This document shows positions 10,039 to 58,663 of a stretch of 64,000 nt of DNA, piece after piece. This DNA is from an uncultured Gemmatimonadota bacterium (lineage in GTDB: Bacteria > Blakebacterota > Blakebacteria > Blakebacterales > Blakebacteraceae). Numbering within the stretch: position 1 is the first letter of the stretch; each line of letters starts with the position of its first letter. Position numbers and translations under genes: made by a program. The stretch lies in the NCBI GenBank assembly GCA_964576115.1, contig CAZNUA010000002.1:21789-85788 (forward strand), read 5' to 3'. Under the pieces are notes generated by a model, which was not told the origin of the DNA, did not search any database, and was given only the letters and a program-made list of their open reading frames with translations.

Positions 10039-10151
10039 CTGATGATGTGTCTTGCGGATCGGGTTCCGGGGTGGGAGAATTCGGGGAGGAGAAGCGTTGC
10101 CGGAGGGTAACTAAACGAAGCGAGGCTGCTGGACGTCTTACCGGTACCATC

Positions 10152-15104: not shown

Positions 15105-16720
15105 CAGACCTTCTCGGAAATGCTCTTCGGCTGGGTGAAGAGGAAGAGGTAGTCGAACCCTCCCGCCTTCGAGTCGGTCCCGCTCATGTTGAAACCGCCG
15201 AAGGGGTGACCGCCCACCAGGGCGCCGGTACACTTGCGGTTCACGTACAGGTTCCCGGCATGGCAGCGGTCCTTCCCCTTCTCGATCTTCTCGCGGTTGG
15301 TGGAGTAGATCGCTCCGGTCAGGCCGTAGATCGAGTCGTTGAAAACGTCGATGGCGTCATCGAAGTCCCCGGCCTTGATGACCGCCGCGACCGGTCCGAA
15401 GATCTCCTCCTGGGCGAGGCGGTCCTTGCGATCGATGTCGGCGATGATGGTGGGCTGGATGTACCAGCCTTCTCCCGCCTCGCTGTCGCGCGCCCCGCCG
15501 GTCACGAGCCGGCCTTCCTCTTTGCCGATCTCGATGTAGGCCAGGTGATCGTTCATGGCCCCTTCGTTGATCACGGCCCCCATGTAGTTGGCCTGATCGG
15601 CGGGATCGCCGACCGCGATCTTTTCGGTCTCGGCCACGAATTTCTCGAGGAACTCGTCATAGACGTCCTCGCAGACGATGATGCGCGAGGCTGCGCTGCA
15701 CTTCTGACCCTGGAAACCGAAGGCGGAAGCGGTGCAGCCCCTGGCGGCCTCGTCCAGATCGGCCTCGGAGTCCACGATGATGGCGTCCTTGCCGCCCATC
15801 TCGAGGATGGTCCGTTTGATCCAGATCTGCCCTTCGGGGGCCTTGGCCGCTTCGGCGTTGATGTGCAGGCCGACCTCCATCGACCCCGTGAAAGCGATCA
15901 GGCGGGTCTTGGGATGCTTGACCAGGTAATCTCCGGCCGAGGCGCCCGCCCCGGGCATGAAGTTGACCACGCCCTCGGGCAGGCCGATGTCCTGCAGGAT
16001 CTTGAAGTACTGGTACCCGATTCCGGGGGAATCGCTCGAAGGTTTGAGGACGACCGTGTTCCCCGCCACCCAGGCCGCCGTGGCCATACCGCACAGGATC
16101 GCCAGCGGGAAGTTCCACGGCGGTACCACCAGAGCCACCCCGAGGGGGATGTAACGCAGTTCGTTGTCCTCGCCCGGGACCGGGGTCAGGGGCTGGGGAG
16201 CGGCGTAGCGGACCATCTCCCGGCCGTAGAAGTCGAGGAAGTCGATCGCTTCGGCCACGTCGGCGTCGGCCTCGACCCACGACTTGCTCTCCTCGAAGAC
16301 CATCCAGGCGGCCAGTTCGAGCCGGCGCTCGGTCATCAGATCGCAGGCTTTCCAGGCGTACTCGGCCCGCTCCCACGGATCGGACCACTGCCACGTCTCG
16401 AAGGCGTCCAGGGCCGCATTGATGGCGATATCGGCCTCATCCTTCTGCGCTTTCGAGAAGGATCCGATCAGTTCGTCGGGGTAGGACGGGTTGTAGCTGG
16501 GCAACTGAGCTTCGGTCCAGATTTCCTTGCCGCCCAGAATCAGCGGGTAGTCGCGGCCGAATTCGGACCGCACTTTTTCCAGGGCGGCCGTCATGGCCTG
16601 AACGTTCTCATCTTTCGAGAAGTCGGTCAGGGGGCAGTTGCGGAACTCCCCCCGCTTCTCCATTACTTCTTTGGGCCAGGTCGCCTCAACGGCCCTGGTC
16701 ATGGTTCCGCTCTCTGACAT
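15104..16720 (-). CDS. L-glutamate gamma-semialdehyde (1-pyrroline-5-carboxylate) dehydrogenase, aldehyde dehydrogenase family
   Basis: ALDH catalytic Cys (FGFQGQKCSAASR) and Glu (LEMGGKD) motifs; RocA/PruA-type N-terminus PLTDFSKDEN; start at MSESG. Confidence 0.85.
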   Translation of the reverse strand: MSESGTMTRAVEATWPKEVMEKRGEFRNCPLTDFSKDENVQAMTAALEKVRSEFGRDYPLILGGKEIWTEAQLPSYNPSYPDELIGSFSKAQKDEADIAINAALDAFETWQWSDPWERAEYAWKACDLMTERRLELAAWMVFEESKSWVEADADVAEAIDFLDFYGREMVRYAAPQPLTPVPGEDNELRYIPLGVALVVPPWNFPLAILCGMATAAWVAGNTVVLKPSSDSPGIGYQYFKILQDIGLPEGVVNFMPGAGASAGDYLVKHPKTRLIAFTGSMEVGLHINAEAAKAPEGQIWIKRTILEMGGKDAIIVDSEADLDEAARGCTASAFGFQGQKCSAASRIIVCEDVYDEFLEKFVAETEKIAVGDPADQANYMGAVINEGAMNDHLAYIEIGKEEGRLVTGGARDSEAGEGWYIQPTIIADIDRKDRLAQEEIFGPVAAVIKAGDFDDAIDVFNDSIYGLTGAIYSTNREKIEKGKDRCHAGNLYVNRKCTGALVGGHPFGGFNMSGTDSKAGGFDYLFLFTQPKSISEKV

Positions 16721-16830
16721 CCTCTGTCTCTCCTCTAGGGCTGGCGGGCGGGGACGAAAAAGTACTAAGTCAGACCTCAAGGTCCGAAATTCCCCCTCCG
16801 CAGTCCACGAAAATGTTGCCGGCTCGGCCC

Positions 16831-27500: not shown

Positions 27501-28118
27501 TCACTCCCCTTCATGTCGCTTCAACTCCTCACCGAATTCAATCCCATCCCTGTCTTCGGAGAGCAGAGCCGACCGCATTTTTTCCAGCGCTTTGAAGCGC
27601 CGGACCCGGACGGTGGCCCGCGAGCACTCCTGCAGCTCCGCGATCTGAGCCGTGTTCCAGCCGCTGAAGAAGGTCAGCCGGACGGTTTCCTGTTCCAGGG
27701 TCGAAAGGGTGCTCAGGGCCGCCTCGAGCATCGCCGGCGAGAGGCTCTCGAGTCCCGCATCGGGCTCGGCCGGAGCCTGGCCCATGGTGGTCTCGACCAG
27801 CCCCTGCTCCCGTCCCTCCCATAATCGCCGGCGGGTCTTCAGGACTTTGAGCCGGTCGAAACACAGGTTGCGGGCGATGGTGTAGATCCAGGTGGAGAAG
27901 CGGGCCGAGGCCCGGTAGGAATCCGCCGAACGGATCGCTTTCATGAAGGTCTCCTGCACCAGATCTTCCGCCTCGTCTTCCGAAGGAACAAAACCACGGC
28001 AGTAGCGGAGCAGCCGTACCGCATAGCGGTCCATCAGCTCCCCGAAGGCGTCGGTGTCGCCCCGGGAGTAGCGGATGAAGAGTCGTTCATCGCTTATGCG
28101 GTTCGGTTCACGTCCCAT
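27501..28118 (-). CDS. ECF RNA polymerase sigma factor
   Basis: Region 2 (LVQETFMKAIRSADSY...STWIYTIARNLCFD) and region 4 (ETVRLTFFSGWNTAQIAELQECSRATVRVRRFKALEKM). Confidence 0.85.
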   Translation of the reverse strand: MGREPNRISDERLFIRYSRGDTDAFGELMDRYAVRLLRYCRGFVPSEDEAEDLVQETFMKAIRSADSYRASARFSTWIYTIARNLCFDRLKVLKTRRRLWEGREQGLVETTMGQAPAEPDAGLESLSPAMLEAALSTLSTLEQETVRLTFFSGWNTAQIAELQECSRATVRVRRFKALEKMRSALLSEDRDGIEFGEELKRHEGE

Positions 28119-28166
28119 GCAGTTCCGTATACCGGTCCGGCTCACCGGACGTTTATCGGGATCGGT

Positions 28167-42268: not shown

Positions 42269-43252
42269 CTAAAGCCAGCCGTGCTCCCGGTACCATGCGG
42301 TCGTGGTCCTGATCCCCTGCGCAATATCGATCGCCGGTTTCCAGTCCAGGTCGCGGATCGCGGCCGAAGGATCGGCTGTCCAGAAGCGGTGCCGGTAATC
42401 GTGCAGGCGGGAACGCGTGAGAACCGGCAAACCCCCTCCGACGCGCAGCAGCAGCTCGTTGATCAGCGCCAGAGGGTAGAGGCAGACGGGGATGACGGGG
42501 AAGAAGCGGACCCGCCGTTTCACTGCCCGCCCCATCAGACGGACAATGTCCCGCATCCAGTACGGTTCGGGATCGGCCGCGAAATACACCCGTCCGGCGG
42601 CGACGGGGAAACGCCCCGCCCGCTCGATCAGATCGACCAGATCGGTGACGTGGATCATGCTGGCACAGATATCCCCCGGAACGGTCGGCGCCAGACCCCG
42701 GCGGGCCGTCCGATAGAGAACGAGCAGGTCGTCATCGTACGGTCCGTACACGATCGCCGGTCTGATGATAGTCACGCGCATCGACCCGGGGGCTTCGTTC
42801 AGACAGACGATTTCACCCTCCCGTTTGCTCTGACCGTACATTCCCACCGGCCGGGGATCATCCGTTTCGGTCCGGGGTGCGCCCTCGCTAGCCGGACCGG
42901 CGGCGGCCAGGCTCGAGACGAGCACGAAACGCTCGAGTCCCTCCGCAGCCGCTGCCCGGACAAGGTTCCGCGTGCCGGTGACGTTGACGCGATCATACTC
43001 CTCCCTGGTCACGGCCCGGGTCACCCCCGCCAGGTGAAAGACAGTCGTCGCTCCCCGCAGGGCGGGGAGCAGGGTGTCGGCCCCGGTCACATCGCCGTAG
43101 ACCAGTTCGACCGCCGCTCCGTTCAGGGCCTGCAGGTCTGAAGTGCGGCGCACCAGAGCCCGGACCCGGTAATCCCGCGCGGCAAGGGCACGACAGAGAT
43201 GGGCGCCGATGAAACCGTTGGCGCCGGTAACGAGAACCGTCTTCACAGTCAC
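42269..43252 (-). CDS. NAD(P)-dependent epimerase/dehydratase-family (extended SDR) oxidoreductase
   Basis: Rossmann motif VLVTGANGFIGAHL at the N-terminus; 327 aa. Confidence 0.8.
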   Translation of the reverse strand: MTVKTVLVTGANGFIGAHLCRALAARDYRVRALVRRTSDLQALNGAAVELVYGDVTGADTLLPALRGATTVFHLAGVTRAVTREEYDRVNVTGTRNLVRAAAAEGLERFVLVSSLAAAGPASEGAPRTETDDPRPVGMYGQSKREGEIVCLNEAPGSMRVTIIRPAIVYGPYDDDLLVLYRTARRGLAPTVPGDICASMIHVTDLVDLIERAGRFPVAAGRVYFAADPEPYWMRDIVRLMGRAVKRRVRFFPVIPVCLYPLALINELLLRVGGGLPVLTRSRLHDYRHRFWTADPSAAIRDLDWKPAIDIAQGIRTTTAWYREHGWL

Positions 43253-43401
43253 AATCCTGCTTCGCTCCAGACCCGCTATTCTCTACAATCCGGGGGTATC
43301 CCTTTCCAACGGGAACTCTGTCAGTGTAGCGTGCCGGACAACGTCGCGACCACACCCAACCCGACCGGGGTTGAAACCGAGTGGGAGTTGAGCAACGGAC
43401 G

Positions 43402-44583
43402 ATGGACCTCTTTACCAAGTGCTATGAAGCAAAAGAATGGAAGCAGGCCCAGCGCTTCGGGTACTACCCGTATTTCACGCCGATAGAGAGCGAGGCCGGC
43501 GCTGTTGTAACCATCGGGGACGAGCGCAAGATCATGCTCGGTTCCAACAACTATATGGGTCTGACGAACCATCCCGACGTGAAAGCTGCGGCCGTCGAAG
43601 CTGTCGAGCGATACGGGTCGGGCTGTACGGGATCGCGGTTCCTCAACGGCACCCTCGACCTGCACATCGCTCTCGAGGCCGAGCTGGCCGACTGGCTCGG
43701 CAAGGAAGCGGCGCTGGTCTTCTCGACCGGATTTTTCGTCAATCAGGGGGTTATCTCCTCCCTGGTCGGTAAGAATGATATTTGCCTTTCCGACCGCCTC
43801 AATCACGCCAGCATCGTGGAAGGCAGCCGGCTGGCGGCGGGAGAGACGATCCGCTACCGGCACAACAATCTGGCTGAACTGGAACACCAGCTGCAGAAAG
43901 CCCGGGACACGGCCGGCCGGTTGATCGTCTCCGACGGCGTCTTCAGCGCCGAGGGCACGGTGGCCGATGTGACCGGACTCTGCACGCTGGCCCGGCGTTA
44001 CGACGCCCGGATCATGATCGACGAAGCTCATGCGATCGGGGTCTACGGTCCCGAAGGCCGGGGGGCGGCGGCCGCTCAGGGCCAGCTCGACCGGGTCGAC
44101 CTGCTCATGGCGACTTTTTCGAAGTCGTTCGGCGGGGTCGGGGGATTCGTGGCCGGGCCGCTCGAGGTCATCATGTGGATCCGCCACACCGCCCGGACGA
44201 TGATCTTCTCGGCCAGTCTGCCGCCTGCTTCGGTCGCCAGCGCCCGGGCCGCCCTGGCGATCATCCGTACCGCCGACGATCGCCGCGAGGCTCTCTGGCG
44301 CAATGTCACGCACTGGCGCGACGGTCTTCAGCGTCTGGGTTTCGACACGCGGCAGTCCACCAGCCAGATCGTGCCGGTCTTCATCGGCGACGATATGACC
44401 TGCGTCAAGTTCTGGAAGGCGCTTTTCGCCTCAGGAGTCTTCACCAACGCTTTCATCCATCCCGCCACCCCTCCGCACGGCGCTCTGATCCGGACGTCGC
44501 TGATGCCGACTCACACGACCGAGATGCTTGATGAAGCTCTCGACATCTTCGCTCGCGTCGGCCGGAAGATGAAAATTATCTGA
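43402..44583 (+). CDS. alpha-oxoamine synthase closely resembling bacterial serine palmitoyltransferase (class II PLP aminotransferase)
   Basis: Strong recalled similarity to Sphingomonas SPT: YNYMGL, GSGCTGSRFLNGT, FSTGFFVNQGVIS, DEAHAIGVYGPEGRG, PLP-Lys in TFSKSFGGVGGFV, FSASLPP; alternative start at 43381. Confidence 0.8.
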   Translation: MDLFTKCYEAKEWKQAQRFGYYPYFTPIESEAGAVVTIGDERKIMLGSNNYMGLTNHPDVKAAAVEAVERYGSGCTGSRFLNGTLDLHIALEAELADWLGKEAALVFSTGFFVNQGVISSLVGKNDICLSDRLNHASIVEGSRLAAGETIRYRHNNLAELEHQLQKARDTAGRLIVSDGVFSAEGTVADVTGLCTLARRYDARIMIDEAHAIGVYGPEGRGAAAAQGQLDRVDLLMATFSKSFGGVGGFVAGPLEVIMWIRHTARTMIFSASLPPASVASARAALAIIRTADDRREALWRNVTHWRDGLQRLGFDTRQSTSQIVPVFIGDDMTCVKFWKALFASGVFTNAFIHPATPPHGALIRTSLMPTHTTEMLDEALDIFARVGRKMKII

Positions 44584-44589
44584 AGCGGC

Positions 44590-45729
44590 TTAGTCCGGGC
44601 TTTCTTCGGTGACGGGGGGAGGCGCTCCCTTCTCGATGGCAGCCGGAGCAGGGCCCTCCTCGATGGCGTGCAGACGGATATCGAGACCGCTCAGCTTGCG
44701 TTCGGCCCGTTCGTAGGCCTTGCCGGCGTTGCTCAGATGGGTTCCCAGAACGGAGTATTCTTCGCTGAAGGCGTCCAGCTCGCCCTGCATCCGGCGCAGG
44801 CGGGCCATGATCTCGCTCCCCCGCCGCTCCAGTTCAAGGCCCCGCAGACCGTAGAGAATCACCTGCAGGTAGGCGTAGAAGGTGTTGGGGCTGACCGGTA
44901 TGACCCGGCGGTTGATGGCGTATTCGAGCAGGCTGTCCGATTCGCTGTCCCCCCCCCCCGCCCCCTCCTCGCGCACGATGGTCTCGTAGTAGACGTTCTC
45001 GGCGGGAATGTACATCATCGCGAAGGTGAAGGTGCCTTCGTCGGGGAGGATATATTTGGCGGCGATGTCGTCGATCTTCTTCTTCACATTGCTCAGGAAT
45101 TTGCGCCGCGCCTTCGAGCGCTCCGCCTCACCGGCTTCGAGGACCCGTTTGAAGTCCTCGATCGGGAACTTGGAGTCGATCGGTACCAGCTGCGAGCCGA
45201 TCCGGATCACGGCGTCGACCGTGACTCCGCTCGCAAAGGTGTACTGCATGTCGTAGAAGGCGCTCGGGAAGGTATCGGCCAGCAGTTTCTCCAGGAAGAT
45301 TTCCCCTACTCCGCCGCGCAGTTTCGGGCTCGTCAGGATACTCTCGAGCCCGGCGATGTTTTTACCCAGGTCGAAGATCTGCCCGGTCGCCTCGGAGAGC
45401 GATCCGAGCTCTTTCTTCAGATCAGCCACCGTCCGGCCCGAGGCCGAGAGCTGTTCGGCAAGCAGGCGCTGCTGCCCCGTGAGCCGTTCGTCGAGGGCGG
45501 CCTGCACTTCCTGCAGCCGCCGGGCAAGGCGCTCGGACTGATCCCGGGCCTGCTCGAGACCGGCCAGCCGGCTCTGCTGCAGCCCCTCGTTGATGTCCTT
45601 TCCGGTCGTCCGGACCGCCTCCCCCAGATCGCGCAGGCGGCTCAGGGAGTGCAGGACGAGAGCGAAAAGGGCGAAGAGGGCTGTCACGAGTACGATGACG
45701 AGCGGCCAGAAGAATTCGGGCAGGTTCAT
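44590..45729 (-). CDS. rmuC: DNA recombination protein RmuC
   Basis: N-terminal TM, coiled coil, RmuC-domain motifs (GxxGEIFLEKLL, PIDSKFP, FAMMYIPAE, VIPVSPNTF). Confidence 0.8.
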   Translation of the reverse strand: MNLPEFFWPLVIVLVTALFALFALVLHSLSRLRDLGEAVRTTGKDINEGLQQSRLAGLEQARDQSERLARRLQEVQAALDERLTGQQRLLAEQLSASGRTVADLKKELGSLSEATGQIFDLGKNIAGLESILTSPKLRGGVGEIFLEKLLADTFPSAFYDMQYTFASGVTVDAVIRIGSQLVPIDSKFPIEDFKRVLEAGEAERSKARRKFLSNVKKKIDDIAAKYILPDEGTFTFAMMYIPAENVYYETIVREEGAGGGDSESDSLLEYAINRRVIPVSPNTFYAYLQVILYGLRGLELERRGSEIMARLRRMQGELDAFSEEYSVLGTHLSNAGKAYERAERKLSGLDIRLHAIEEGPAPAAIEKGAPPPVTEESPD

Positions 45730-45810
45730 GGATTCACAGTACAGCGGGGCGGGTGGAGGAGCAACGCCGCACTCCACCCGCCCCGTTTCCCCGCCCCGGC
45801 CGCCGGAGCG

Positions 45811-48800
45811 TCATTTCAACAGCAGGATTTTCCGCGTCATCCGGCGACGGTCCAGTTCCAGCACCACCAGGTACACCCCGGCGGCGACCCGCCGGCCGTC
45901 ATTGTCGGTGCCGTCCCAGCGGACCTGGTAGTCGCCGCCGGCGGTAGCCCGGTCGATGAGCAGCCGCACGCATCGGCCGCGCACATCCCTGATCTCGAGC
46001 CGGAGTCGATCGGATCCGCCTGCCGGCACCCGGTAGCGCAGACAGGTCTCGGGATTGAAGGGGTTCGGCACGGCCGGCAGCAGAGCCGCCTCCGGCGCTG
46101 TCTGAGGCACCGTCAGCGCAGCCGGGCCGAGCCAGAGAACCGGCCGGCCGGGCCGCACGATACGGACCGCCACAGCCTCGGGTGCCGCCTGCCCCTGCGG
46201 ACCGGGCTCGAGTTCGAGTTCCCAGGCGCACCCCGGCGGGGCAGGAGGCGAAAAACTCTCCCCGATACCGGTCGGCAACCAGAGCCGGTCGTCACCGGGG
46301 GGGCCACCGCCTCCCCGCGGAGCCCCGTAGCCGGCGTAGAGAGCACTCTCGATCCCCTCGCCGCCGGCCAGGACCTGCCAGCGCACCTCGACGAGCAGGG
46401 GTCCGCGCCGGGTGGTTTCGAGACCGCTCACGGCCAGTCCGGGGCCCGCCGCTTCGGCCCGGAGCAGTCGCGTGCGATCGGCGTGGATGTCCAGGGGGGT
46501 GCAGCGCCAGCCTCCGTCGGGAGCCAGTTCGCGCAGATCCACAGCCATTTGACCGCTCCCGCTTCCCGACAGCAGCACAGCCAGGTCGGCGTACCAGGTG
46601 AGGCCCGCTGTCCGGGCCCTGACCGTCGTGCCCCCGGCAGTCAGCAACAGGGGTCGATCGGGATGCGGCGCCGCGCCCCGGCACCAGCGGGGCATGGCGG
46701 GCAGGGCCGGTGCCGCTACCGTCACGGCCCGCGTCCAGCGGCGTTCTCCATCGGCTGTCTGCCGGGTGAGTTCGACCCGCCACCGGCCCGCCTCCAGGCC
46801 GCTGATCCGGTGTGAGTGCCACGACCGGTCGCCGCCGAGAGCCGCACTCCAGCGGGGCTGCCCTCCCGCGGAGATGAGCCGCACCTGCCCGGGACCGGAA
46901 CCCGCCCAGAGCAGCTCGAGGGTACCCGGCCCGGCAGCCCAGACCTCGAGCGCGGGCCGATCGACCGGCTCGCTCGATCCCCCGCCGTCACCTCCCACCC
47001 GGCCGAGAGCGATTCCAGCCGTCCCGGCCGGCTGCCAGGTGAGCAACGAGTCGATGTCGATCGCCACGGCGTCTCCCCAGCCGATGGTGAAGTCCTCTCC
47101 GATCAGCTCGCCTTCCGAGGTGCGGAAGCACCCCCGCCAGGCCTGGCGGTACCCATCCCAGGAGCTGACGCTTAGCACAGCCGGGTCGTCCAGAACCGCG
47201 GCTGCCGTGCGCACCCGGGTGGAATCGCACACCCCGACCAGGGCCAGACCGCCGCCCCTCGCGAGTGACGGAGGGTCATAACGCCGGGGACCGTGCCAGG
47301 TCAGGGTGCAGGGAGCCGTACTCACGACAGCGTACCCGGCGCCGGGTACGAGGGTGAAATCGTCGCCGGCCGTACTTCCGTCGGTCAGGCGCAGAGCCGA
47401 GCACCAGGCCGCCGAGAGCTGATCCCACCGGGCTACTTCCCCCGCCGCCGGCAGAGCCGACAGCAGAGAAAAGGCCCCGGTGCAGGCCGGATCGTCGAGA
47501 GTGGGAGTGATCAGGGTCACCCCGGGGGAGAGAACGCAGGCCCGGTCGGCCCGGTGAGCGATACGGATCGCAGCGGGTGAGGTCACCGTCGCCGGGGGGT
47601 TCAGACCGTCCTCGACACGGGCCGCGAGCCGCCAGAGCGTTCCTTCGGGCAGGTCGAAGAGTTCGACCGCCACCGTACCCCGGTCAGTGCGATCGAGAAC
47701 CTGCGGCACGGTCAGGGCGGGCGCCGTCCGGCTTCCCCCTTCCTCTTGCAGGGTCAGGGTGGCCCAGGCCTGGCCCGGATCGGCGAGACTGTATTCGAGC
47801 AGAAGCACCGAATCGACCGCGGCTCCGACGGGGAAGTCGAGCCAGGTGAAAATCGGCGGCGGATCGGTGGCCAGGGCCGGCAGGATGACCTCCTGCGGCG
47901 AGTCCCCGCTCACCGTGACGAGCCCCGAGGCGACCCCCGCAGCGGCCCCGTCGGCCTCGATTGTCAGGGTATCGCCGGCCGCCCAGGAGCAGGCCGATCC
48001 CCCGATGGTCCGCAGGTTGCCCAGGTTCAGGGCCCAGCAGCCGGTCGAGTCGCTGCGCGTGGCGAGCCAGCCCGAACGGGGTGTGGCGCCCCCCAGTCTC
48101 AGGAATACCTGGGCTCCCCCCACCGCCTCGCCGCTTACCGATCCGACGAGGCATCCGTACACGGTGCGGGGCACAGAGGTGACGACCGTCCCTGTTGTCA
48201 ACGAGGTGAACGTATCAGCCGGAGCGGGAGTACCCGCGCTCACGACCCGCCAGGTCACGGTAGTGCCGGGGTTGAGACCGTAGTGTTCGACCAGGTGGAG
48301 CAGTCCGGCGGGGTTGCCGTCCCAGGTGCGGCGCAGGTGTGATCCGGAGAGGATTTCGAGCCGTCCGTCAGCGGCCGTGCTGCTCCGCCAGGCGACACCG
48401 AATCCGGCGCTGGTCAGATTGACGATCCTGGTCCGGTACAGCATCGGCGCGCTTGTGTCGGGACCCCCGTCCGGAGTCGCGGGCCCGGCCGGACTGAAGG
48501 CCGCCGCGAACCGGGTGGCATGATCGCAGAAATCGCCCGCCCCTTCCGGATCGCGGACCCAGGCGGCATCGGTGTCCCAGCCGGCATAGGTGATATCCTG
48601 CAGGGTGTCGGGACCGGCGGGATCGATCAGAAGCAATCGTCCGGCGGTATTGCTCAACCCCGATCCCAGCCGGCCGTCATCCACGAAGCATCGGCCCGGT
48701 AGAGTGGTCGGCTCCCCACCGCCGAAAAGGGTGACATACTCGCCCGGAGCCAGCCTGGTTCCGGGCGGGAAGGTGAAGGGATCGGCTCCGGCCGGGCCGA

Positions 48801-49047
48801 GTATCCAGCCTGACACGTCCACCGGCCCGGCGCTCCGGTTGACCAGTTCGATGAACTCGTCGGCATACGTATCCCGGACGCCGTCGCCGTTGGCGTCGCC
48901 GGCCAGATCGGCGGGGGGATCGGCGAGCACCTCGTTGATGACGACCGGAGGATCTGTCTCCTGAGCCCACAGAGACAGGGGCAGGGTCGCGACAGTCAGC
49001 AGTACTGTCGCCGCTCCCGCCCGCAGAAGCAGGTTCGCAGGTTGCAT
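45811..49047 (-). CDS. large secreted protein with lamin-tail domain (LTD) and C-terminal type IX secretion (Por) sorting domain
   Basis: Signal peptide; LTD signature (VVINEVLADP...DEFIELVNRS...VDVSGWIL); C-terminal about 80 aa with a T9SS CTD pattern (LEIRDVRGRCVRLL...GVYLVVLELDRRRMTRKILLLK). Confidence 0.75.
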   Translation of the reverse strand: MQPANLLLRAGAATVLLTVATLPLSLWAQETDPPVVINEVLADPPADLAGDANGDGVRDTYADEFIELVNRSAGPVDVSGWILGPAGADPFTFPPGTRLAPGEYVTLFGGGEPTTLPGRCFVDDGRLGSGLSNTAGRLLLIDPAGPDTLQDITYAGWDTDAAWVRDPEGAGDFCDHATRFAAAFSPAGPATPDGGPDTSAPMLYRTRIVNLTSAGFGVAWRSSTAADGRLEILSGSHLRRTWDGNPAGLLHLVEHYGLNPGTTVTWRVVSAGTPAPADTFTSLTTGTVVTSVPRTVYGCLVGSVSGEAVGGAQVFLRLGGATPRSGWLATRSDSTGCWALNLGNLRTIGGSACSWAAGDTLTIEADGAAAGVASGLVTVSGDSPQEVILPALATDPPPIFTWLDFPVGAAVDSVLLLEYSLADPGQAWATLTLQEEGGSRTAPALTVPQVLDRTDRGTVAVELFDLPEGTLWRLAARVEDGLNPPATVTSPAAIRIAHRADRACVLSPGVTLITPTLDDPACTGAFSLLSALPAAGEVARWDQLSAAWCSALRLTDGSTAGDDFTLVPGAGYAVVSTAPCTLTWHGPRRYDPPSLARGGGLALVGVCDSTRVRTAAAVLDDPAVLSVSSWDGYRQAWRGCFRTSEGELIGEDFTIGWGDAVAIDIDSLLTWQPAGTAGIALGRVGGDGGGSSEPVDRPALEVWAAGPGTLELLWAGSGPGQVRLISAGGQPRWSAALGGDRSWHSHRISGLEAGRWRVELTRQTADGERRWTRAVTVAAPALPAMPRWCRGAAPHPDRPLLLTAGGTTVRARTAGLTWYADLAVLLSGSGSGQMAVDLRELAPDGGWRCTPLDIHADRTRLLRAEAAGPGLAVSGLETTRRGPLLVEVRWQVLAGGEGIESALYAGYGAPRGGGGPPGDDRLWLPTGIGESFSPPAPPGCAWELELEPGPQGQAAPEAVAVRIVRPGRPVLWLGPAALTVPQTAPEAALLPAVPNPFNPETCLRYRVPAGGSDRLRLEIRDVRGRCVRLLIDRATAGGDYQVRWDGTDNDGRRVAAGVYLVVLELDRRRMTRKILLLK

Positions 49048-49192
49048 ACGGATCTCCCGAAAGCCTGATGCCGGGGGGTCGGCAGGTTTATTGGGGGAGC
49101 CTGTGGGGGGGGAAATGGTGCGGTGGGGGTAACCGAACGGGAGTATACTTCCCGGGGGGAAAGAGCACAAGGACCGGTCGCCCGGAAGCTCC

Positions 49193-49222
49193 TTGACCTG
49201 CTTTTATCGTCCCGCGTAATTG
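49193..49222 (+). promoter_or_regulatory. putative promoter of the ECF sigma gene (TTGACC, 18-nt spacer, TAATTG; overlapping ECF-like GGAAGC...CGTC)
   Basis: Motifs 50-80 nt upstream of ATG 49274. Confidence 0.3.
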
Positions 49223-49273
49223 ATTCGCGCTCACCGCCCGGGCTCCGCCCCCGGCCGCGGGACGCAGGAGAAC

Positions 49274-49840
49274 ATGACCAGGTCCGACACGAACCAGCTC
49301 ATCGACCGCGCCCAGAGAGGCGACGAGGAGGCTTTCACCTCCCTGGTGCGTCTCTACGAGGCTCAGGTGCAGGCTGTCTGCCTGAAGATGGTCCATAACA
49401 CCGAGACGGCGCGCGACCTGGCTCAGGAAACGTTCGTGAAAGCCTTCAGCGCCCTGGCATCCTTCGATCGTTCCTTCACTTTCTCCACCTGGCTGTACAA
49501 GATCGCCCGCAATACCTGCATCGATCACTTCCGCCGGCAGAAACTCGAAACCTACTCCCTCGATGCGCCGATGCGGACCCGCGAGGGACAGATCGAGCGC
49601 GATTTCCCCTCGCCTATCAATACCCCGGAGCGCTTCCTCATCCTGAAGGAACGGGGCCGCCTGATCGAGGAGGCGATCGAGAGTCTACCCGACAAGTACC
49701 GGGAGGTCATCGGGCTCCGGCACAAGCAGGAACTGCCGTACGAGGAGATTGCCAACATCCTCGGTGTACCGCTCGGAACCGTGAAAGCCCGTCTCTTCAG
49801 GGCCCGCGAACTCCTCAAGAAACGGCTCAAGTCCCTGTGA
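49274..49840 (+). CDS. ECF RNA polymerase sigma factor
   Basis: Region 2 (LAQETFVKAFSALASF...STWLYKIARNTCID) and region 4 (YREVIGLRHKQELPYEEIANILGVPLGTVKARLFRAREL); GGAGA RBS. The track ORF begins at a TTG at 49220. Confidence 0.85.
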   Translation: MTRSDTNQLIDRAQRGDEEAFTSLVRLYEAQVQAVCLKMVHNTETARDLAQETFVKAFSALASFDRSFTFSTWLYKIARNTCIDHFRRQKLETYSLDAPMRTREGQIERDFPSPINTPERFLILKERGRLIEEAIESLPDKYREVIGLRHKQELPYEEIANILGVPLGTVKARLFRARELLKKRLKSL

Positions 49841-49937: not shown

Positions 49938-51278
49938 ATGGCCGTACGCAAAGCTGACATCCGCGCCCACGGCCGGCCCGGCCCGGTTCTGCTGGCGGCG
50001 TTCTGCCTGCTCGCCGCCCTGCCGGCAACGGCTGTGGCAGATTCCTGCCTCACCCCCGTGGATCAGGAATTCGAGCAAGAGTACGAGCAGGAAGAAATCC
50101 AGCAGTTCTACCGGGAAATCGAACGCCTGTCCGGCGACCTCCAGGAGGCGGTCGACACCATCGAGAGCGGCCGGCGCGAACTCGACGCCGTCAAGGAAGC
50201 CCTGCGCCGCCTCGAGGAAGATCTCTCGGAACTCGACGAATCGCCCGACACCCTGCGTCTCAAGGCGCAGCTGACCGAACTGCGCGGCCGGTATATGTCC
50301 GCCAACCTGCGGCGGGCGATGGGGGGCATGCCCGACGCGCGCGAGCTGCTCGACGACGAGCTCTGGCGGCGCTTTGCGCCCGACATCGAAGTCATGCGCG
50401 GCACCACCTCGCGCCATAACATCTTCCGGATCGGGGAAGACGTCGAGATCGGGCTCTATGAGCGGGTGCGTGGCGACGTGGTCGTCATCGGTGGCGAGAT
50501 CACCGTGCGCGGCTCGGTCACCGGGTCGGTGGTGGCGATCTTCGACGACATCCACATCACCGGCACCGGGCGGGTGGACGGCGACGCCGTCACGATCGGC
50601 GGGATGATCCGGCAGGATCCGGGGGGTACAGTTCGCGGCGATTTCGTCGACACCCGGTTCAGCTGGCCGCAGAGCTGGCACTGGATCCAGGCTCCGGCCC
50701 TGCCGTTTTTCTTCGGACTGGGGGGATTCGTCTTCATTCTGCTGGTGAGCCTGATGGTGGGCCTGATCGCGCCGCGCGGGGTCGATCGGGTCGAGTATAC
50801 CGTTCGCAACCGCTTCGGGGCTTCCTTCCTGGTGGGCCTGCTGACCGAGCTGCTGCTGCCGATCGTCTTCATCCTGCTGCTCATCACCATCATCGGGATC
50901 CCGGTGGCAATCATCGTGGTACCCCTGGCAATGGCCTGGCTGCTGATCCTCGGTTTTACGGGAGTAGCGCGGGCGGTCGGCCGCGGCGCCGATCAGCGGG
51001 GTTTGAAGATCGGGGATTCTCCGGTCGGCCTGATCGCGGTCGGGGTTGTTCTACTCGAGATTATCTACCTTATCGGCGGCGGACTCGGAATCGCCCCCGG
51101 CGTGCTGGTCCCCTTCGCCTTTGCCACCCGGCTGGTAGGGGGACTGATCCTTTTCCTGGCCTGGACGACCGGCCTGGGGGCGGCTCTGATGACCCGCTTC
51201 GGCACCCGCATCCCCGGCGAGACCCCGGCCGTACCCAAACCGGCGCCTCCCCCCGCAGGAGCCGAAACTCCGGCCTGA
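49938..51278 (+). CDS. secreted/membrane protein: signal peptide, acidic coiled coil, bactofilin-like beta-helical repeats, C-terminal multi-TM region (candidate noncanonical ECF partner)
   Basis: Signal peptide; repeats (GDVVVIGGEITVRGSVTGSVVAIFDDIHITGTGRVDGDAVTIGG); 4-5 C-terminal TM helices. Confidence 0.6.
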   Translation: MAVRKADIRAHGRPGPVLLAAFCLLAALPATAVADSCLTPVDQEFEQEYEQEEIQQFYREIERLSGDLQEAVDTIESGRRELDAVKEALRRLEEDLSELDESPDTLRLKAQLTELRGRYMSANLRRAMGGMPDARELLDDELWRRFAPDIEVMRGTTSRHNIFRIGEDVEIGLYERVRGDVVVIGGEITVRGSVTGSVVAIFDDIHITGTGRVDGDAVTIGGMIRQDPGGTVRGDFVDTRFSWPQSWHWIQAPALPFFFGLGGFVFILLVSLMVGLIAPRGVDRVEYTVRNRFGASFLVGLLTELLLPIVFILLLITIIGIPVAIIVVPLAMAWLLILGFTGVARAVGRGADQRGLKIGDSPVGLIAVGVVLLEIIYLIGGGLGIAPGVLVPFAFATRLVGGLILFLAWTTGLGAALMTRFGTRIPGETPAVPKPAPPPAGAETPA

Positions 51279-51369: not shown

Positions 51370-51930
51370 TCAGCGACCGATGGCGAGCCGCACGCCCAGC
51401 CAGCAGGTCGGAGCGCCGGTGGCATCCGGAGGGGGAACCGGGGTGATCTCGAAGCGCGGTTCTTCACGGTCGAAATCGGCCAGGTGGGCGTCCACGAAGG
51501 CGTCGGCCAGATTGTAGAGCCAGAGACCGACCGTCCAGAGGATCCAGCGCCGGCGACGGGTGCGCCAGTGCTCGATATCGGTTTCCAGCGTCGCCCGTTC
51601 GAGCGCGGTCAAACCCGGATCGCGCCGGCCGGCCAGGTCGCGCACCTGACTGTCACAGTAGAAGGTGAGCCCCAGCAGGCTCGCCGCCCCGGTCGCGAAG
51701 ACCACCCCTTTGACCGGCTTGCCGACGTAAAACTGCCCCCAACCGGGCAGCAGGGCCGAGCGCAGCAGGGCCCGTCCGGGATCGATCGAGCGGACCGAAT
51801 CGGTCAGGGCCGCGGTCGGGGCCGGTTCCTGCTCGAGCCCGGGGTCGGTCCCCGCCTGCGCGCTGGCGCCCTTCGGCGCCCACAGGAGAAGAACCAGCAG
51901 CAGAGAGCCGATCGGGACCGGGCGCGACAC
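51370..51930 (-). CDS. DUF5683-family membrane-associated protein
   Basis: Signature SALLPGWGQFYVGK (SxxxPGxGQxY of DUF5683); probable GTG start 12 nt after the upstream stop. The track ORF is longer and overlaps the neighbouring gene. Confidence 0.6.
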   Translation of the reverse strand: MSRPVPIGSLLLVLLLWAPKGASAQAGTDPGLEQEPAPTAALTDSVRSIDPGRALLRSALLPGWGQFYVGKPVKGVVFATGAASLLGLTFYCDSQVRDLAGRRDPGLTALERATLETDIEHWRTRRRRWILWTVGLWLYNLADAFVDAHLADFDREEPRFEITPVPPPDATGAPTCWLGVRLAIGR

Positions 51931-51941
51931 GCCGGCCCCTT

Positions 51942-52901
51942 TCAGGGCGCCCGGAAGCGCAGGGCCCGCGGCGCGCAGGTGAACTCGATCTCGGTGACGC
52001 CGGTTTCGGTGATCTGGCCGTCGGCGTGGAGCAGGATCGGTTCTTCCCCCTCGACCGTCAGGCTGGGTTTTCGGAGCATGGTGACGTGATGCAGGTGCGT
52101 ATGCTTGCCTGTAGTCGCCCGGGGGAGCAGACGCAACACGGTCGGGACGGGGATGTCGTGTACCAGACAGCAGTCGAAGAGGCCGTCGTCCCATTCGGCG
52201 TCGGGCAGCAGCGTGAAGCCGCCCCCCTCGCGGGTGCCGATACCGATCGTGAGCAGATATACCAGGTCGTCATACCTGTATTCGGGAGCGGTCAGGACCA
52301 TCGGGATCGAGCGGTACTTGTAGAGCGATTCGAGCACCGTCACCAGGTACATGACATACCCGCGCAGGCGGGTATGGCGCAGGCTGTAGGCCGTCACGGC
52401 GGCACTGAAACCCAGGCCGATCGTATTGAAGAAGGGTCGGCCGTTGAAGAATCCGACATCGGTGCAATACACGTTCCGGGAGGTGAGCGCCGCAATGGCG
52501 CCGTCGAGGTCCTCGGGGATACCCCGGCAACCGGTGAAATCGTTACCTGAACCCATCGGGATGGCGCCGAGAACGGCCTCGGAGTCCCACATGCCCCGGG
52601 CCACCTCGTGCACCGTACCGTCGCCCCCCACCGCCACGACCGTGTCCGCCCCCTGCTCGACGGCCTCGCGCGCCAGCTCGGTGGCATGACCCTCCGCTTT
52701 GGTGACGACCGGCGTGAACTCCAGGCCGGCTTCGACCAGGGCGCCCAGGATCTCCCGCTCCCGCCTGGCCACCAGCCCACGGCCGGCAATCGGGTTCATG
52801 ATCACCACGGTGGTCCCCAGAGGTACTGTCTCGGCGGATGCGCGCCGGGTGGCGCGGTCGGCCGCGGGTCCGGTTCGCTCTTTCACACCGGCTCCTCTCA
52901 T
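51942..52901 (-). CDS. YegS/BmrU-family lipid kinase (diacylglycerol kinase catalytic domain)
   Basis: Motifs VVIMNPIAGRG, VVAVGGDGTVHEV, IPMGSGNDF; start taken at Met 52901 so the gene does not run through the tRNA-like element. Confidence 0.75.
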   Translation of the reverse strand: MRGAGVKERTGPAADRATRRASAETVPLGTTVVIMNPIAGRGLVARREREILGALVEAGLEFTPVVTKAEGHATELAREAVEQGADTVVAVGGDGTVHEVARGMWDSEAVLGAIPMGSGNDFTGCRGIPEDLDGAIAALTSRNVYCTDVGFFNGRPFFNTIGLGFSAAVTAYSLRHTRLRGYVMYLVTVLESLYKYRSIPMVLTAPEYRYDDLVYLLTIGIGTREGGGFTLLPDAEWDDGLFDCCLVHDIPVPTVLRLLPRATTGKHTHLHHVTMLRKPSLTVEGEEPILLHADGQITETGVTEIEFTCAPRALRFRAP

Positions 52902-57266: not shown

Positions 57267-57499
57267 GCTCTTTTCCGCCTCACTGAAGGAGAGATAGGCA
57301 GCGGGGATAGCACATTCCCCTGTGAAGCCGTGAAAAGTACGGGCGGGCAGGTGAGGTGTCAACCTCACCCCTCAGCCAGGCCCCGCCGAAAGCGGGTGGG
57401 CCGCCGGCTGTTTCCACCCGTCAGGCTCCCGGTGTCGGGGTGCAGATCGGCTGACACTGCCGATTGTGTCCCCGGCCCCGACCGGGCTATGCTCGACCC

Positions 57500-58663
57500 A
57501 TGTCCGGATCCCGCCCATACCGCATGCCCCTGCTCTACCGGATCGTGCGCGGACTCATCCGCCCCCTGCTGCGGGCCTGGTGCGGCCTGCGGCACCCCCC
57601 GTCCGATTCCATCCCCGCCTCGGGACCACTGGTGGTCGTGGCCAATCACCGCTCCTATCTCGACGCCTTCCTGCTGGCCGCCGCCTTTCCCCGGCCGGTT
57701 CATTTCATCGCTTCGGCCGAGGCCTTCCGTCCCGGCCTCCAGCGTCTCTTCATGCGTCGCCTGGGTTGCATCCGGCTCCGGCGGTGGGTGCCCGATCCGC
57801 AGGCGATCCGGAACGTCCTCACGATCCTGAAAGCGGGGGGCGTGGTGGGGATTTTTCCCGAGGGCGAGCGGAGCTGGGACGGCAGTCCCGCTCCCATCCT
57901 GCCCGGGGTTCCCCGCCTCATCGCCCTGGCCGGAGCGCCGGTCGTGGCTGTCCGGCTGAAAGGTTCCTACCGGCTCTGGCCTCGCTGGGGCCGTTCCCTG
58001 CGGCATGCCGCGGTCGACGTGGAGTGGGGTGCGCCACAGGCGCCCGGAAGCGAGGCCGAGGTCAGGATCGCTCTGGTCGAGGCGCTGGCCACCCATCCGG
58101 GTGCCCCGTCCGACCGGCGCCGGAGTGCCGAGGACGTCGGTCGCCTGCTCTGGCGCTGTCCGAGCTGCGGGGGAATCAACGGTGTCCGGGGGGAGCGGGA
58201 CGGGAGAGTCTACTGCCTGCACTGCGGCGCCCGCGGTACTCTCCTGGACGGATCGCATCTGGTCTGGTCCGGGGAGGGGCCGCATTCCCTGCGCCACTGG
58301 GCCCGCCGGGTGGCGCTCACCGTCGACGAGCGGCAGCGGCTGGCACCACCCGGTCCCGAACCGGTCCGCCGCTGGCCGTTCCTGAGACTGGCTTCGGGAT
58401 CGGGGGACGCGCCGCTGCGCCGGCGGGGCCGCGGCGAAGCGCTCCTTACTCCGCGGGCCCTGATCCTGCGTTCGGAGGGCTGGCGGGCGTTCGTGCCCGC
58501 CGAGACGATCCGCTCGGTCACCGTGGAGGGCTCGCACAAGATCCAGCTCGCCACCCCCGACCGGATCTACGAGCTGCGTTACCGCCGGGGCAGCCCCCGG
58601 GGCCCCCGCGCCCATCTCGAAGCGTGGCTCGACAGCCGGGATATCCTCTACCGCCGGGCCTGA
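57500..58663 (+). CDS. lysophospholipid acyltransferase (PlsC/LPLAT family) fused to a C-terminal zinc-ribbon-containing domain
   Basis: Acyltransferase HxxxxD motif (ANHRSYLD) and FPEGER motif; C-terminal CPSCGG...CLHCG ribbon plus about 150 aa of unknown function. Confidence 0.7.
   Translation: MSGSRPYRMPLLYRIVRGLIRPLLRAWCGLRHPPSDSIPASGPLVVVANHRSYLDAFLLAAAFPRPVHFIASAEAFRPGLQRLFMRRLGCIRLRRWVPDPQAIRNVLTILKAGGVVGIFPEGERSWDGSPAPILPGVPRLIALAGAPVVAVRLKGSYRLWPRWGRSLRHAAVDVEWGAPQAPGSEAEVRIALVEALATHPGAPSDRRRSAEDVGRLLWRCPSCGGINGVRGERDGRVYCLHCGARGTLLDGSHLVWSGEGPHSLRHWARRVALTVDERQRLAPPGPEPVRRWPFLRLASGSGDAPLRRRGRGEALLTPRALILRSEGWRAFVPAETIRSVTVEGSHKIQLATPDRIYELRYRRGSPRGPRAHLEAWLDSRDILYRRA

Follow-up and report, generated by a model that had tools for sequence, protein, structure and literature searches.

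Bacterial serine palmitoyltransferases (Spts) have been described in different genetic contexts. In the cluster of Caulobacter, Sphingomonas and E. coli B, Spt (CC_1162) adjoins an extended-SDR (NDUFA9/epimerase-like) reductase, CerR (CC_1164), and the cluster also holds AcpR, AasR and the bacterial ceramide synthase bCerS (CC_1154, the homologue of E. coli YghO; PMC9386255). The dedicated AcpR/AasR partners are a trait of the alpha/beta/gamma-proteobacterial Spt subgroup (PMC9386255), and the Bacteroidota-type Spt has no dedicated ACP partner. In those Bacteroidota that produce sphingolipids, the genes spt, cerR and bcerS do not form a cluster (PMC11334938). A Black Sea study (ISME J 2024) added an ‘Spt-like’ clade B of environmental MAGs, placed outside the earlier known Spt clade, and reported that Spt-like genes often lie near CerR and bCerS homologues, in 38 bacterial phyla (PMC11334938). 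The name Zixibacteria is absent from both the main text and the supplement of that study.

Here we describe a divergent gene pair (Table 1) in a 64-kb stretch of DNA, hereafter the window, whose lineage has the Candidatus Zixiibacteriota, of the FCB group, as its nearest named relative; the guess of an FCB-like lineage in the original prediction was therefore close. Our results suggested that this pair probably encodes the enzymes for the initial condensation and the keto reduction in the bacterial sphingolipid (ceramide-backbone) pathway, a role that we propose from the sequences, the active-site residues, the tree and the conserved neighbourhood. It would be a new member of an already known pathway, the Spt-reductase pairing having been predicted before in many bacterial phyla. 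Note that the locus had been proposed to be a head-group module; the role that we favour is that of a backbone (long-chain-base) module instead.

Table 1. Features of the divergent locus (positions of the window)
Feature	Position	Strand	Remarks
Extended-SDR reductase ORF	42269..43252	minus	GTG start, 327 codons
Divergent intergenic region	43253..43401	.	149 bp, read from sequence
Spt-like alpha-oxoamine synthase	43402..44583	plus	ATG start, 393 aa

Both ORFs of the pair are real, as had been predicted, and identical SDR and synthase proteins are present as calls on several public contigs. The public gene calls place the SDR start at 43246, two codons downstream of the one in Table 1, which gives a protein of 325 aa (P0121). 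The longest synthase ORF starts at a GTG at 43381, and the N-terminus of the family, MDLFxKC, runs from 43402. Two antisense ORFs, at 42281..43141 (plus strand) and 43321..44313 (minus strand), were rejected as genes: they are shadow ORFs, typical at 64% G+C, and related loci repeat antisense ORFs over the synthase gene as shadow clusters. The intergenic region presumably carries the promoters of both genes; this we only infer, because an Rfam scan of positions 43150-43500 at E <= 1 returned zero families and a sigma-70/terminator scan found no sigma-70-like consensus site between the two ORFs. The window as a whole is rich in cell-envelope genes, encoding for example SLT, amidase and OmpA proteins.

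The synthase matched the Pfam family Aminotran_1_2 (E 6.4e-52), and its top NCBIfam model was NF047600, which represents the Bacteroidota-type Spt. With 465 bits against a cut-off of 640, it is no equivalog of this type by the NCBI criterion, and on the remaining Spt equivalog models it scored 372 against 500 (NF047599) and 319 against 670 (NF047603). Since it lies below the NCBIfam cut-off for all the Spt models, it receives no automatic Spt name; the reference Spts pass these cut-offs (B. finegoldii 700, E. coli 600 and Sphingomonas 833 bits). The KBL equivalog models gave 388 bits against a cut-off of 460 and 339 against 493, and the BioF equivalog model 369 against 426. These 369-388 bits, together with the JGI annotation of many family members as 8-amino-7-oxononanoate synthase, could favour the view that the two genes are unrelated neighbours, namely a housekeeping KBL or BioF next to a chance sugar-nucleotide epimerase or HpnA-type SDR. 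We consider this very improbable: neither KBL nor BioF reaches its own cut-off, and both score lower than Spt, the NF047600 score exceeding that of KBL by 77 bits. In addition, no tdh lies near the synthase, in contrast to the Bacillus KBL reference locus, and no bioA, bioB or bioD is found nearby, in contrast to the Alicyclobacillus BioF reference locus.

Among solved structures, the top match of the synthase was the S. multivorum Spt (SmSpt; 3a2b), with 355 bits. The two proteins are about 44% identical over their full length in a gap-free HMMER alignment (PDB 3a2b/8guh). The other references scored 288 (E. coli KBL), 277 (Sphingomonas Spt) and 218 bits (BioF), and the solved cysteate-C-fatty acyltransferase 217. 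The original prediction had the synthase matching the Sphingomonas Spt motif by motif, more closely than BioF or KBL. The assignment to the Spt type over BioF/KBL stands, but the choice of Sphingomonas does not, since that enzyme scores slightly below KBL when the whole sequence is compared and the S. multivorum Spt is the nearest. The proteobacterial Spts form another subgroup and are 37-39% identical to the window synthase.

The active-site residues that determine substrate specificity, whose examination had been suggested, point in the same direction. All of K241, H135, D207, H210 and R364 are present in the synthase and invariant across an 18-member alignment of the family; Lys241, in the motif TFSKS, is the PLP Schiff-base lysine, His135 is the stacking residue, Asp207 faces N1, His210 faces O3', Arg364 binds the carboxylate, and Asn49, Asn82 (in GSRFLNGT) and Ala271 (in IFSAS) are the other key residues. 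When the 24 active-site and acyl-wall residues defined for SmSpt (PMC10196870) were compared, the synthase was identical at 22. The two differing positions are Thr76, where SmSpt has Ala79 but the E. coli B Spt, an enzyme verified by biochemistry, likewise has Thr, and Ile268, a residue that recurs in the Spts of B. finegoldii, S. paucimobilis and E. coli. The Spt-specific residues Y25, Y27, F28, S81, N85 and A274 of SmSpt are all kept, as Y22, Y24, F25, S78, N82 and A271 of the synthase. At these six positions E. coli KBL and the BioF reference differ where aligned, with the exception of a BioF Ser at S81. The residues that a KBL or BioF would carry (Val at 78; Cys, Ala or Thr at 82; Asn or Thr at 271) are missing, which also argues against the unrelated neighbours. 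Three motifs of the synthase, GSRFLNGT, TFSKS and IFSAS, also mark it as Spt-like, their KBL counterparts being RFICGT, TLGKA and FSNS, and it has GSRFLNGT, TFSKS and FSAS in common with the Bacteroidota-type Spts (S. multivorum Spt and the Bacteroides BT_0870-type enzymes of NF047600), which fall in the same tree group.

This tree, which takes up the phylogenetic placement among Spt, BioF and KBL that the original prediction had asked for, was built by neighbour joining from 34 sequences and 391 columns, with ALAS, CqsA and SulA sequences left out. Its Spt references were those of S. multivorum, S. paucimobilis, S. parapaucimobilis, E. coli and B. finegoldii, the last three passing the NCBIfam Spt cut-offs. 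Of 300 bootstraps, 99% separated the Spts and the window family from KBL/BioF, and the Bacteroidota Spts nested within the window synthase family. From its sequence, the synthase is most likely of the Spt type, in the Bacteroidota/deltaproteobacterial subgroup.

The same residues bear on the amino acid that would be condensed. It could be that the pair performs the same chemistry with alanine, glycine or another amino acid, producing 1-deoxy-sphingoid or other long-chain amino-alcohol lipids. Bacterial Spts do use L-Ala and Gly, although inefficiently (PMC10196870), environmental Spt-like proteins have been discussed in connection with 1-deoxyceramides and possible lysine-derived ceramides (PMC11334938), the synthase lies under the Spt equivalog cut-off, and Thr76 replaces SmSpt Ala79, a residue that contacts the substrate side chain via water. 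However, Asn49, which in SmSpt reaches the serine hydroxyl via water, is kept, as are Gly77 and Ser240, whose main-chain atoms likewise reach this hydroxyl via water in SmSpt; the E. coli B Spt, although a producer of 3-oxo-sphinganine, has the same Thr; and not one residue change indicates a different substrate. We regard another amino acid as unlikely, and L-serine as the probable substrate.

A sulfonolipid (capnine) module, in which the synthase would be SulA/CapB and the SDR a 3-ketocapnine reductase, had been offered as an option in the original prediction. Both pathways have in common the PLP fold and the logic of condensation followed by reduction, the enzymes belong to a common superfamily, the lineage is in the FCB group, and the cysteate acyltransferases are structurally close to the Bacteroidota Spt (PMC9304779). 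Nevertheless, the diagnostic Lys281 of SulA is replaced by Ala271 (IFSASLPP) in the synthase, an Ala that is invariant in the 18 aligned family members (KBL has Asn), and this largely refutes the option. It is also disfavoured by the bit scores, which drop from 355 with Spt to 217 with the cysteate acyltransferase of known structure. Moreover, those 3-ketocapnine reductases that have been validated so far were recognised by their homology to KDSR/Tsc10, whereas the window reductase is an extended SDR. KDSR and Tsc10 are classical short SDRs. We judge a capnine module extremely improbable, and continue with the sphingoid backbone as the preferred product.

The partner had been recognised as an extended-SDR reductase of the epimerase family by its GANGFIGAHL motif, and this holds: the motif spans residues 10-19, YGQSK occupies residues 139-143, and Pfam matched both Epimerase (E 9.6e-36) and 3Beta_HSD (E 3e-28). 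The Rossmann motif G10-A-N-G-F-I-G16 (GxxGxxG) and the catalytic set Ser113/114, Tyr139 and Lys143 are those of an extended SDR, and Arg34-Arg35 after beta-2 suggests NADPH as the cofactor. Since the Rossmann motif begins at residue 10, the stretch ahead of it, as judged by eye from the sequence, is too short for an N-terminal signal peptide. In this the protein would differ from the Caulobacter CerR, which has been reported as periplasmic (PMC11087976).

The top NCBIfam models for the SDR were lipid-linked (HpnA 131, OleD 110 and SdmB 101 bits). The best of them, HpnA (TIGR03466), could be taken as support for an HpnA-type SDR among unrelated neighbours, as could the abundance of cell-envelope genes in the window; yet its 131 bits fall far short of the cut-off of 368, the known CerRs likewise have HpnA as their top NCBIfam match because no CerR model exists, and zero hopanoid genes were found among the Pfam-scanned window proteins. 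The sugar-nucleotide enzyme models, for their part, gave only about 50 bits (GalE 54, RmlD 53). We compared the SDR with CerR references, which were the synteny-defined Sphingomonas and E. coli proteins and not the Caulobacter sequence. By BLASTP, it was 34% identical to the synteny-defined Sphingomonas parapaucimobilis CerR (E 3e-40) and 32% identical to the hopanoid-associated HpnA (E 4e-33), both over the full length. An HMM built solely from SDRs adjoining Spt-like genes in other phyla gave 349 bits with the window SDR, 204-219 with the proteobacterial CerRs (Sphingomonas CerR 219, E. coli epi protein 218) and 201 with HpnA. By profile score, then, the SDR is no closer to CerR than to HpnA, and its sequence by itself gives no specific tie to CerR over other extended SDRs. 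It is most likely a CerR-like partner, a member of the reductase family that accompanies Spt-like genes.

We then considered the neighbourhood of Spt-like genes in 59 loci of GTDB species representatives, from more than 10 phyla and with at least 2.5 kb on either side. The SDR family adjoins the Spt-like gene in 35 of them, a linkage that speaks against a chance pairing; the median distance between the two genes is 38 bp. A tandem-GNAT protein is encoded directly downstream of the Spt-like gene in 34 loci, 28 of the 59 have both partners, and a PAP2_3 membrane protein lies near the Spt-like gene in 13. The neighbouring tandem-GNAT shares 37% identity with E. coli YghO and 34% (E 7e-80) with the N-acetyltransferase encoded in the Sphingomonas cerR-acpR-spt...lptFG...bcerS cluster; on these comparisons, it is homologous to bCerS/YghO, the bacterial ceramide synthase. 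Thus, the GTDB genomes give the same Spt-CerR-bCerS pattern as the Black Sea clade B, and in the sister lineages of the window family the bCerS/YghO homologue completes the triad known from Caulobacter, Sphingomonas and E. coli B. In other lineages the module thus has a bCerS/YghO homologue as its third conserved gene, a further argument against a sulfonolipid module.

The window lineage differs from this pattern, as its Spt-reductase pair is conserved without an adjacent bCerS. The SDR-Spt pair and its flanks are kept in relatives whose Spt is 68-73% identical to that of the window, and in these relatives (L003, L008 and L099) the order is SDR-Spt-RmuC, with the GNAT absent. It had been remarked that no bCerS or ACP gene is visible in the window, and a six-frame search agreed. 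For bCerS/YghO, the 64-kb six-frame translation gave no match at E <= 1-10 with three query sets, namely an HMM of 32 Spt-adjacent GNATs and, as single sequences, the Sphingomonas bCerS and E. coli YghO; the gene must be encoded elsewhere in the genome or have been lost. The same search of the window returned no credible PAP2-type head-group transferase (PAP2_3), specialised ACP, fatty acyl-AMP ligase or sphingolipid desaturase, the single match to a KDSR-like classical SDR was the SDR itself (E 0.003), and a response-regulator domain that matched a Sphingomonas ‘ATP-binding protein’ is not a credible pathway match. The window has no AcpR, AasR or bCerS, unlike the Caulobacter-type cluster. 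As expected, an ACP gene is missing, since AcpR/AasR belong with the alpha/beta/gamma-proteobacterial Spts; in having no dedicated ACP partner the window synthase resembles the Bacteroidota-type Spt. We also examined a DAGK/YegS kinase encoded 7.4 kb downstream, which is 30% identical to the Spt-adjacent kinase of Bacteroides, and left it out of the module because it is a generic YegS-family protein. Note that the neighbour of the B. finegoldii Spt is a DAGK-family kinase, whereas that of the window Spt is a reductase.

In the pathway that we propose, PLP would be bound by Lys241 of the synthase, and L-serine would displace the lysine as the external aldimine. Condensation of L-serine with a long-chain acyl thioester would then give 3-ketodihydrosphingosine, with loss of CO2. 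The acyl donor is probably acyl-CoA, because the gene comes without a dedicated ACP or acyl-ACP synthetase. The divergent extended SDR would reduce the 3-keto group, probably with NADPH. Its substrate would be the free base if the order of steps is eukaryote-like, and the N-acylated ‘oxidised ceramide’ if it is the one proposed for Caulobacter. N-acylation would be expected from a tandem-GNAT of the bCerS/YghO type, whose gene lies directly 3' of Spt in most related lineages. The substrates, the cofactor, the step order and the final lipid are all what we infer from these comparisons. If the window lineage has instead lost its ceramide synthase, which we hold to be rather unlikely, its sphingoid bases may stay free, be modified in some other way or be acylated by an unrelated N-acyltransferase, and the SDR would reduce 3-ketodihydrosphingosine directly.

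If the paired role in sphingoid-backbone synthesis is correct, a Zixibacteria-like lineage joins the bacteria predicted to make sphingolipids, lipids that affect outer-membrane structure and are used as environmental biomarkers. It would also mean that Spt and its reductase can remain paired where no ceramide synthase gene lies beside them, and such a pair bears on the order of the bacterial pathway, that is, on whether reduction comes before or after N-acylation. A literature search found no lipid analysis for any Zixibacteria-like organism, and none of the window-type synthase loci from the genome scan was of cultured origin. Finally, a homologous Spt-GNAT-SDR triad is present in the cultured Rubrobacter radiotolerans (NZ_CP007515.1), Aureispira anguillae (NZ_AP026868.1) and a Streptomyces strain, with Spts that are 46-47% identical to that of the window, and these cultured carriers make the prediction directly testable.

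ORF calls, Pfam matches and identical public proteins bore out the original prediction of an extended-SDR reductase (SDR) gene and an Spt-like alpha-oxoamine synthase (AOS) gene; the two are divergent, with 149 bp between them, and several public contigs carry both proteins with identical sequence. The SDR matched the Pfam families Epimerase (E 9.6e-36) and 3Beta_HSD (E 3e-28), and the synthase Aminotran_1_2 (E 6.4e-52). In public gene calls the SDR starts two codons later (325 aa). The longest synthase ORF opens at GTG 43381; since the conserved family N-terminus, MDLFxKC, begins only at 43402, the ATG at this position was taken as the start. The pair is a further member of the kind reported in PMC11334938, which describes 'Spt-like' proteins in MAGs from 38 phyla; homologues of CerR and bCerS are frequently encoded close by, a co-location that is not universal.

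Features of the window around the synthase gene
Feature	Position	Strand	Remarks
Extended SDR	42269..43252	-	327 residues from the longest ORF, VTVKTVLVTGANGFIGAHL...
Alpha-oxoamine synthase	43402..44583	+	393 aa from ATG 43402
RmuC	44590-45777	-	adjoins the Spt-like gene
1119-aa protein	45811-49170	-	lamin-tail domain and C-terminal FlgD_ig-like domain
ECF sigma factor	49220-49840	+	after the lamin-tail/FlgD_ig-like gene
DUF8173 gene (public calls)	49938-51278	+	after the ECF sigma factor
DUF5683 gene	within ORF 51370-52194	-	just downstream of the YegS-family kinase
YegS/Rv2252/BmrU-family lipid kinase	51942-52889	-	DAGK_cat and YegS_C; TIGR00147 158 bits, above cut-off
PlsC/LPLAT-type acyltransferase	57464-58663	+	399 aa; PF01553, E 5e-24

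Model scores, residues and phylogeny place the window synthase among enzymes of the Spt type, as a close relative of the Bacteroidota Spt. The best NCBIfam model was NF047600, Bacteroidota-type serine palmitoyltransferase (465 bits), followed by KBL (388), betaproteobacterial Spt (372), BioF (369) and alphaproteobacterial Spt (319 bits), the synthase lying below the curated cut-off on every model scored. The best solved structure was Sphingobacterium multivorum Spt (355 bits, gap-free alignment over residues 14-389). E. coli KBL (288 bits) came before Sphingomonas paucimobilis Spt (277 bits), so the closer match to Sphingomonas Spt than to KBL claimed originally did not hold over the whole sequence; BioF (218) and cysteate-C-fatty acyltransferase (217 bits) followed. 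For the S. multivorum enzyme, the residues that surround PLP, serine and the acyl pocket have been described (PMC10196870), and checking them, as had been proposed, revealed Spt-type residues: 22 of 24 mapped active-site and acyl-pocket residues are identical in the window synthase. The two that differ (Ala79 to Thr76 and Met271 to Ile268, S. multivorum to window) are variants seen in reference Spts, Thr in E. coli B and Ile in B. finegoldii, S. paucimobilis and E. coli. KBL and BioF depart from Spt at acyl-wall residues and at positions 78, 82 and 271.

The references for a neighbour-joining tree were verified by their gene context: tdh-linked Bacillus KBL, E. coli KBL and bioBAFD-linked BioF on one side, and on the other the Spts of S. 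multivorum and S. paucimobilis, plus those of B. finegoldii, S. parapaucimobilis and E. coli passing NCBIfam cut-offs. Of 300 bootstraps, 99% separate all Spts and the window family from KBL/BioF, which puts the synthase with the Spts, in line with the original prediction. The Bacteroidota Spts fall within the window family. A KBL or BioF enzyme beside an unrelated epimerase is very unlikely; the Spt model scores above KBL and BioF, the residues speak against it, there are no tdh or bio neighbours, and the linkage of SDR and synthase across phyla (see below) argues against it too. The prediction had also allowed for a sulfonolipid. Cysteate acyltransferases carry Lys281 where Spts have Ala (PMC9304779); the window synthase has Ala271 at this position, and KBL has Asn. 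A sulfonolipid module fails this test, and its validated reductases were found as KDSR/Tsc10 homologues, making this reading exceedingly improbable. KDSR and Tsc10 are classical SDRs.

Sequence alone puts the window reductase with the extended SDRs of the 3beta-HSD/NDUFA9/HpnA kind; it has the Rossmann motif and a Tyr139/Lys143 pair. Its best NCBIfam matches are lipid-pathway enzymes, HpnA (131 bits), OleD (2-alkyl-3-oxoalkanoate reductase, 110 bits) and SdmB (sterol demethylase, 101 bits); sugar-nucleotide enzyme models score it at ~50 bits. A weak point is that its sequence does not by itself set it nearer to proteobacterial CerR than to HpnA. Note that HpnA is likewise the best NCBIfam match of the known CerRs, and thus there is no CerR-specific model to compare it against. 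On an HMM of Spt-adjacent SDRs, built without the window lineage, it scored 349 bits.

Genomic context is the decisive evidence for the SDR-synthase association. Scanning one genome per GTDB species with the synthase-family alignment yielded 80 loci, all 80 from MAGs and labelled with more than 20 phylum-level groups. The identity of their synthases to the query is 47-54%, apart from one close relative (73%). ORFs were called in all loci and clustered, and only the 59 that had 2.5 kb or more on both sides entered the counts. A window-type SDR adjoins the synthase in 35 of the 59 (median gap 38 bp, often on the same strand), and a tandem-GNAT protein of ~375 aa lies directly downstream of the Spt-like gene in 34; 28 loci have both and 18, mostly Chloroflexota, have neither. 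A PAP2_3 (PF14378) integral membrane protein is encoded nearby in 13/59 loci, from Gemmatimonadota, Eisenbacteria, Acidobacteriota and others, within ~2 kb of the Spt-GNAT-SDR triad (for example L064, 13187-14167, +). Since this family includes phospho-head-group transferases acting on ceramide, the protein is a candidate for the head-group step.

The GNAT protein gave weak GNAT matches in both halves with Pfam and no match in NCBIfam or PDB. By tblastn against plasmid records it was found in Sphingomonas parapaucimobilis, E. coli (YghO), Pseudomonas veronii, Rubrobacter, Streptomyces and Aureispira. It clusters with an Spt-like gene and an SDR in the inspected records of all these except Streptomyces, where the matches to the three are contiguous. 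Gene order in the Sphingomonas locus is the canonical one, with cerR-acpR-spt followed by lptF/lptG paralogues, a desaturase and the N-acetyltransferase, in agreement with the Caulobacter cluster (PMC11324152). In E. coli BL21, yghO is a homologue of CC_1154, the N-acyltransferase required for dihydroceramide, the epimerase gene beside it is a CC_1164 homologue, and E. coli B Spt makes 3-oxo-sphinganine (PMC9386255). A Binatia MAG GNAT is 34% identical to the Sphingomonas N-acetyltransferase over its full length (E 7e-80) and 37% to YghO. This homology and the shared clustering indicate a conserved module homologous to CerR-Spt-bCerS.

Thus, the window pair probably represents an Spt and a 3-keto reductase making a sphingoid backbone. 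From the observed homology, residue conservation and linkage we infer substrates, cofactor, order and product as follows. The synthase, a PLP enzyme (Lys241), would convert L-serine and long-chain acyl-CoA to 3-ketodihydrosphingosine, and its use of a different amino-acid substrate is unlikely. The SDR would reduce the 3-keto group, and Arg34-Arg35 after the second beta-strand suggests NADPH as cofactor. Reduction may precede or follow N-acylation, an order debated even for Caulobacter (PMC11087976, PMC11324152), and the N-acyltransferase would be encoded elsewhere or be absent.

As predicted, no bCerS or ACP gene was found in the window: in six-frame translation of the whole 64 kb, a bCerS HMM, Sphingomonas bCerS and E. 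coli YghO gave nothing credible, nor did the PAP2_3 HMM, three specialised ACPs, fatty acyl-AMP ligase or a KDSR-type SDR model. The lack of an ACP gene is to be expected, because dedicated AcpR and AasR partners go with the alpha/beta/gamma-proteobacterial Spt subgroup and Bacteroidetes Spts use acyl-CoA (PMC11324152, PMC9386255). Only one point is unusual locally: the window lineage consistently lacks an adjacent bCerS; relatives with 68-73% Spt identity keep the order SDR-Spt-RmuC without GNAT. Other Zixibacteria MAGs (L044, L056) have GNAT downstream of the Spt-like gene. The window arrangement may have arisen from an ancestral cluster through GNAT loss or relocation. RmuC also adjoins the Spt locus in Coatesbacteria (L007/L010, RmuC 16503-17672), in the order Spt-GNAT-TPR-SDR-CoA_binding-RmuC.

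The suggested FCB-like lineage was a reasonable guess: the nearest named relative is the Candidatus Zixiibacteriota MAG GCA_042562185.1 (synthase 71% identical), collinear over 20 kb around the pair (LepA, amidase, SmpB, response regulator, OmpA, M14 peptidase, SLT, SDR, AOS, RmuC, LTD protein, ECF sigma factor, DUF5683, DAGK-family kinase). Our literature search turned up no paper that connects Zixibacteria with sphingolipids. The window has a G+C of 63-72%, and its remaining genes have housekeeping and envelope functions, including three further ECF-type sigma factors (6434-7000, 10047-10733 and 27501-28145; four in total). Only one acyltransferase was seen in the window, the PlsC/LPLAT-type protein; it is longer than typical PlsC, its gene lies 13 kb downstream from that of the synthase, and no link to the SDR-Spt pair was seen. 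Related Zixibacteria loci also keep the YegS-family kinase, whose gene is 7.4 kb away from the Spt-like gene in the window. The Spt gene of Bacteroides finegoldii has a DAGK-family kinase gene as its divergent neighbour; since the two kinases are only 30% identical, we do not tie the window kinase to sphingolipid phosphorylation.

Other family members have different neighbours. In Chloroflexota MAGs (L066, 9140-9997, +; L061, L080, L085) the Spt-like gene, without extended SDR and GNAT, adjoins a classical short-chain SDR resembling eukaryotic 3-ketodihydrosphingosine reductase, with Tsc10 (8jat) as third-best PDB match (95 bits, longest alignment). The resemblance suggests that these monoderm lineages use a eukaryote-like reductase. 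An AOS 73% identical to the window enzyme (GCA_964576265.1, CAZNVB010000035.1, 10001-21188) has a quite different context: two PMT_2 membrane glycosyltransferase-like genes follow it, and the same region also encodes a second AOS, an AMP-binding enzyme, a phosphopantetheinyl transferase, a short and an extended SDR, and an 84-aa ORF at the ACP position with no Pfam match. On the Priestia megaterium plasmid NZ_CP137804.1 (3628-7215; mobilizable, Bacillota), a member 47% identical to the window enzyme neighbours 'acyltransferase family' and methyltransferase genes, not SDR and GNAT. Finally, cultured carriers of a homologous AOS-GNAT-SDR triad are Rubrobacter radiotolerans (NZ_CP007515.1), Aureispira anguillae (NZ_AP026868.1) and Streptomyces sp. 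NBC_01001 (NZ_CP108712.1), all on plasmid records, with synthases 44-47% identical to the window enzyme; they offer practical hosts for testing the predicted lipids, and in Aureispira the SDR and AOS genes are divergent, as they are in the window.
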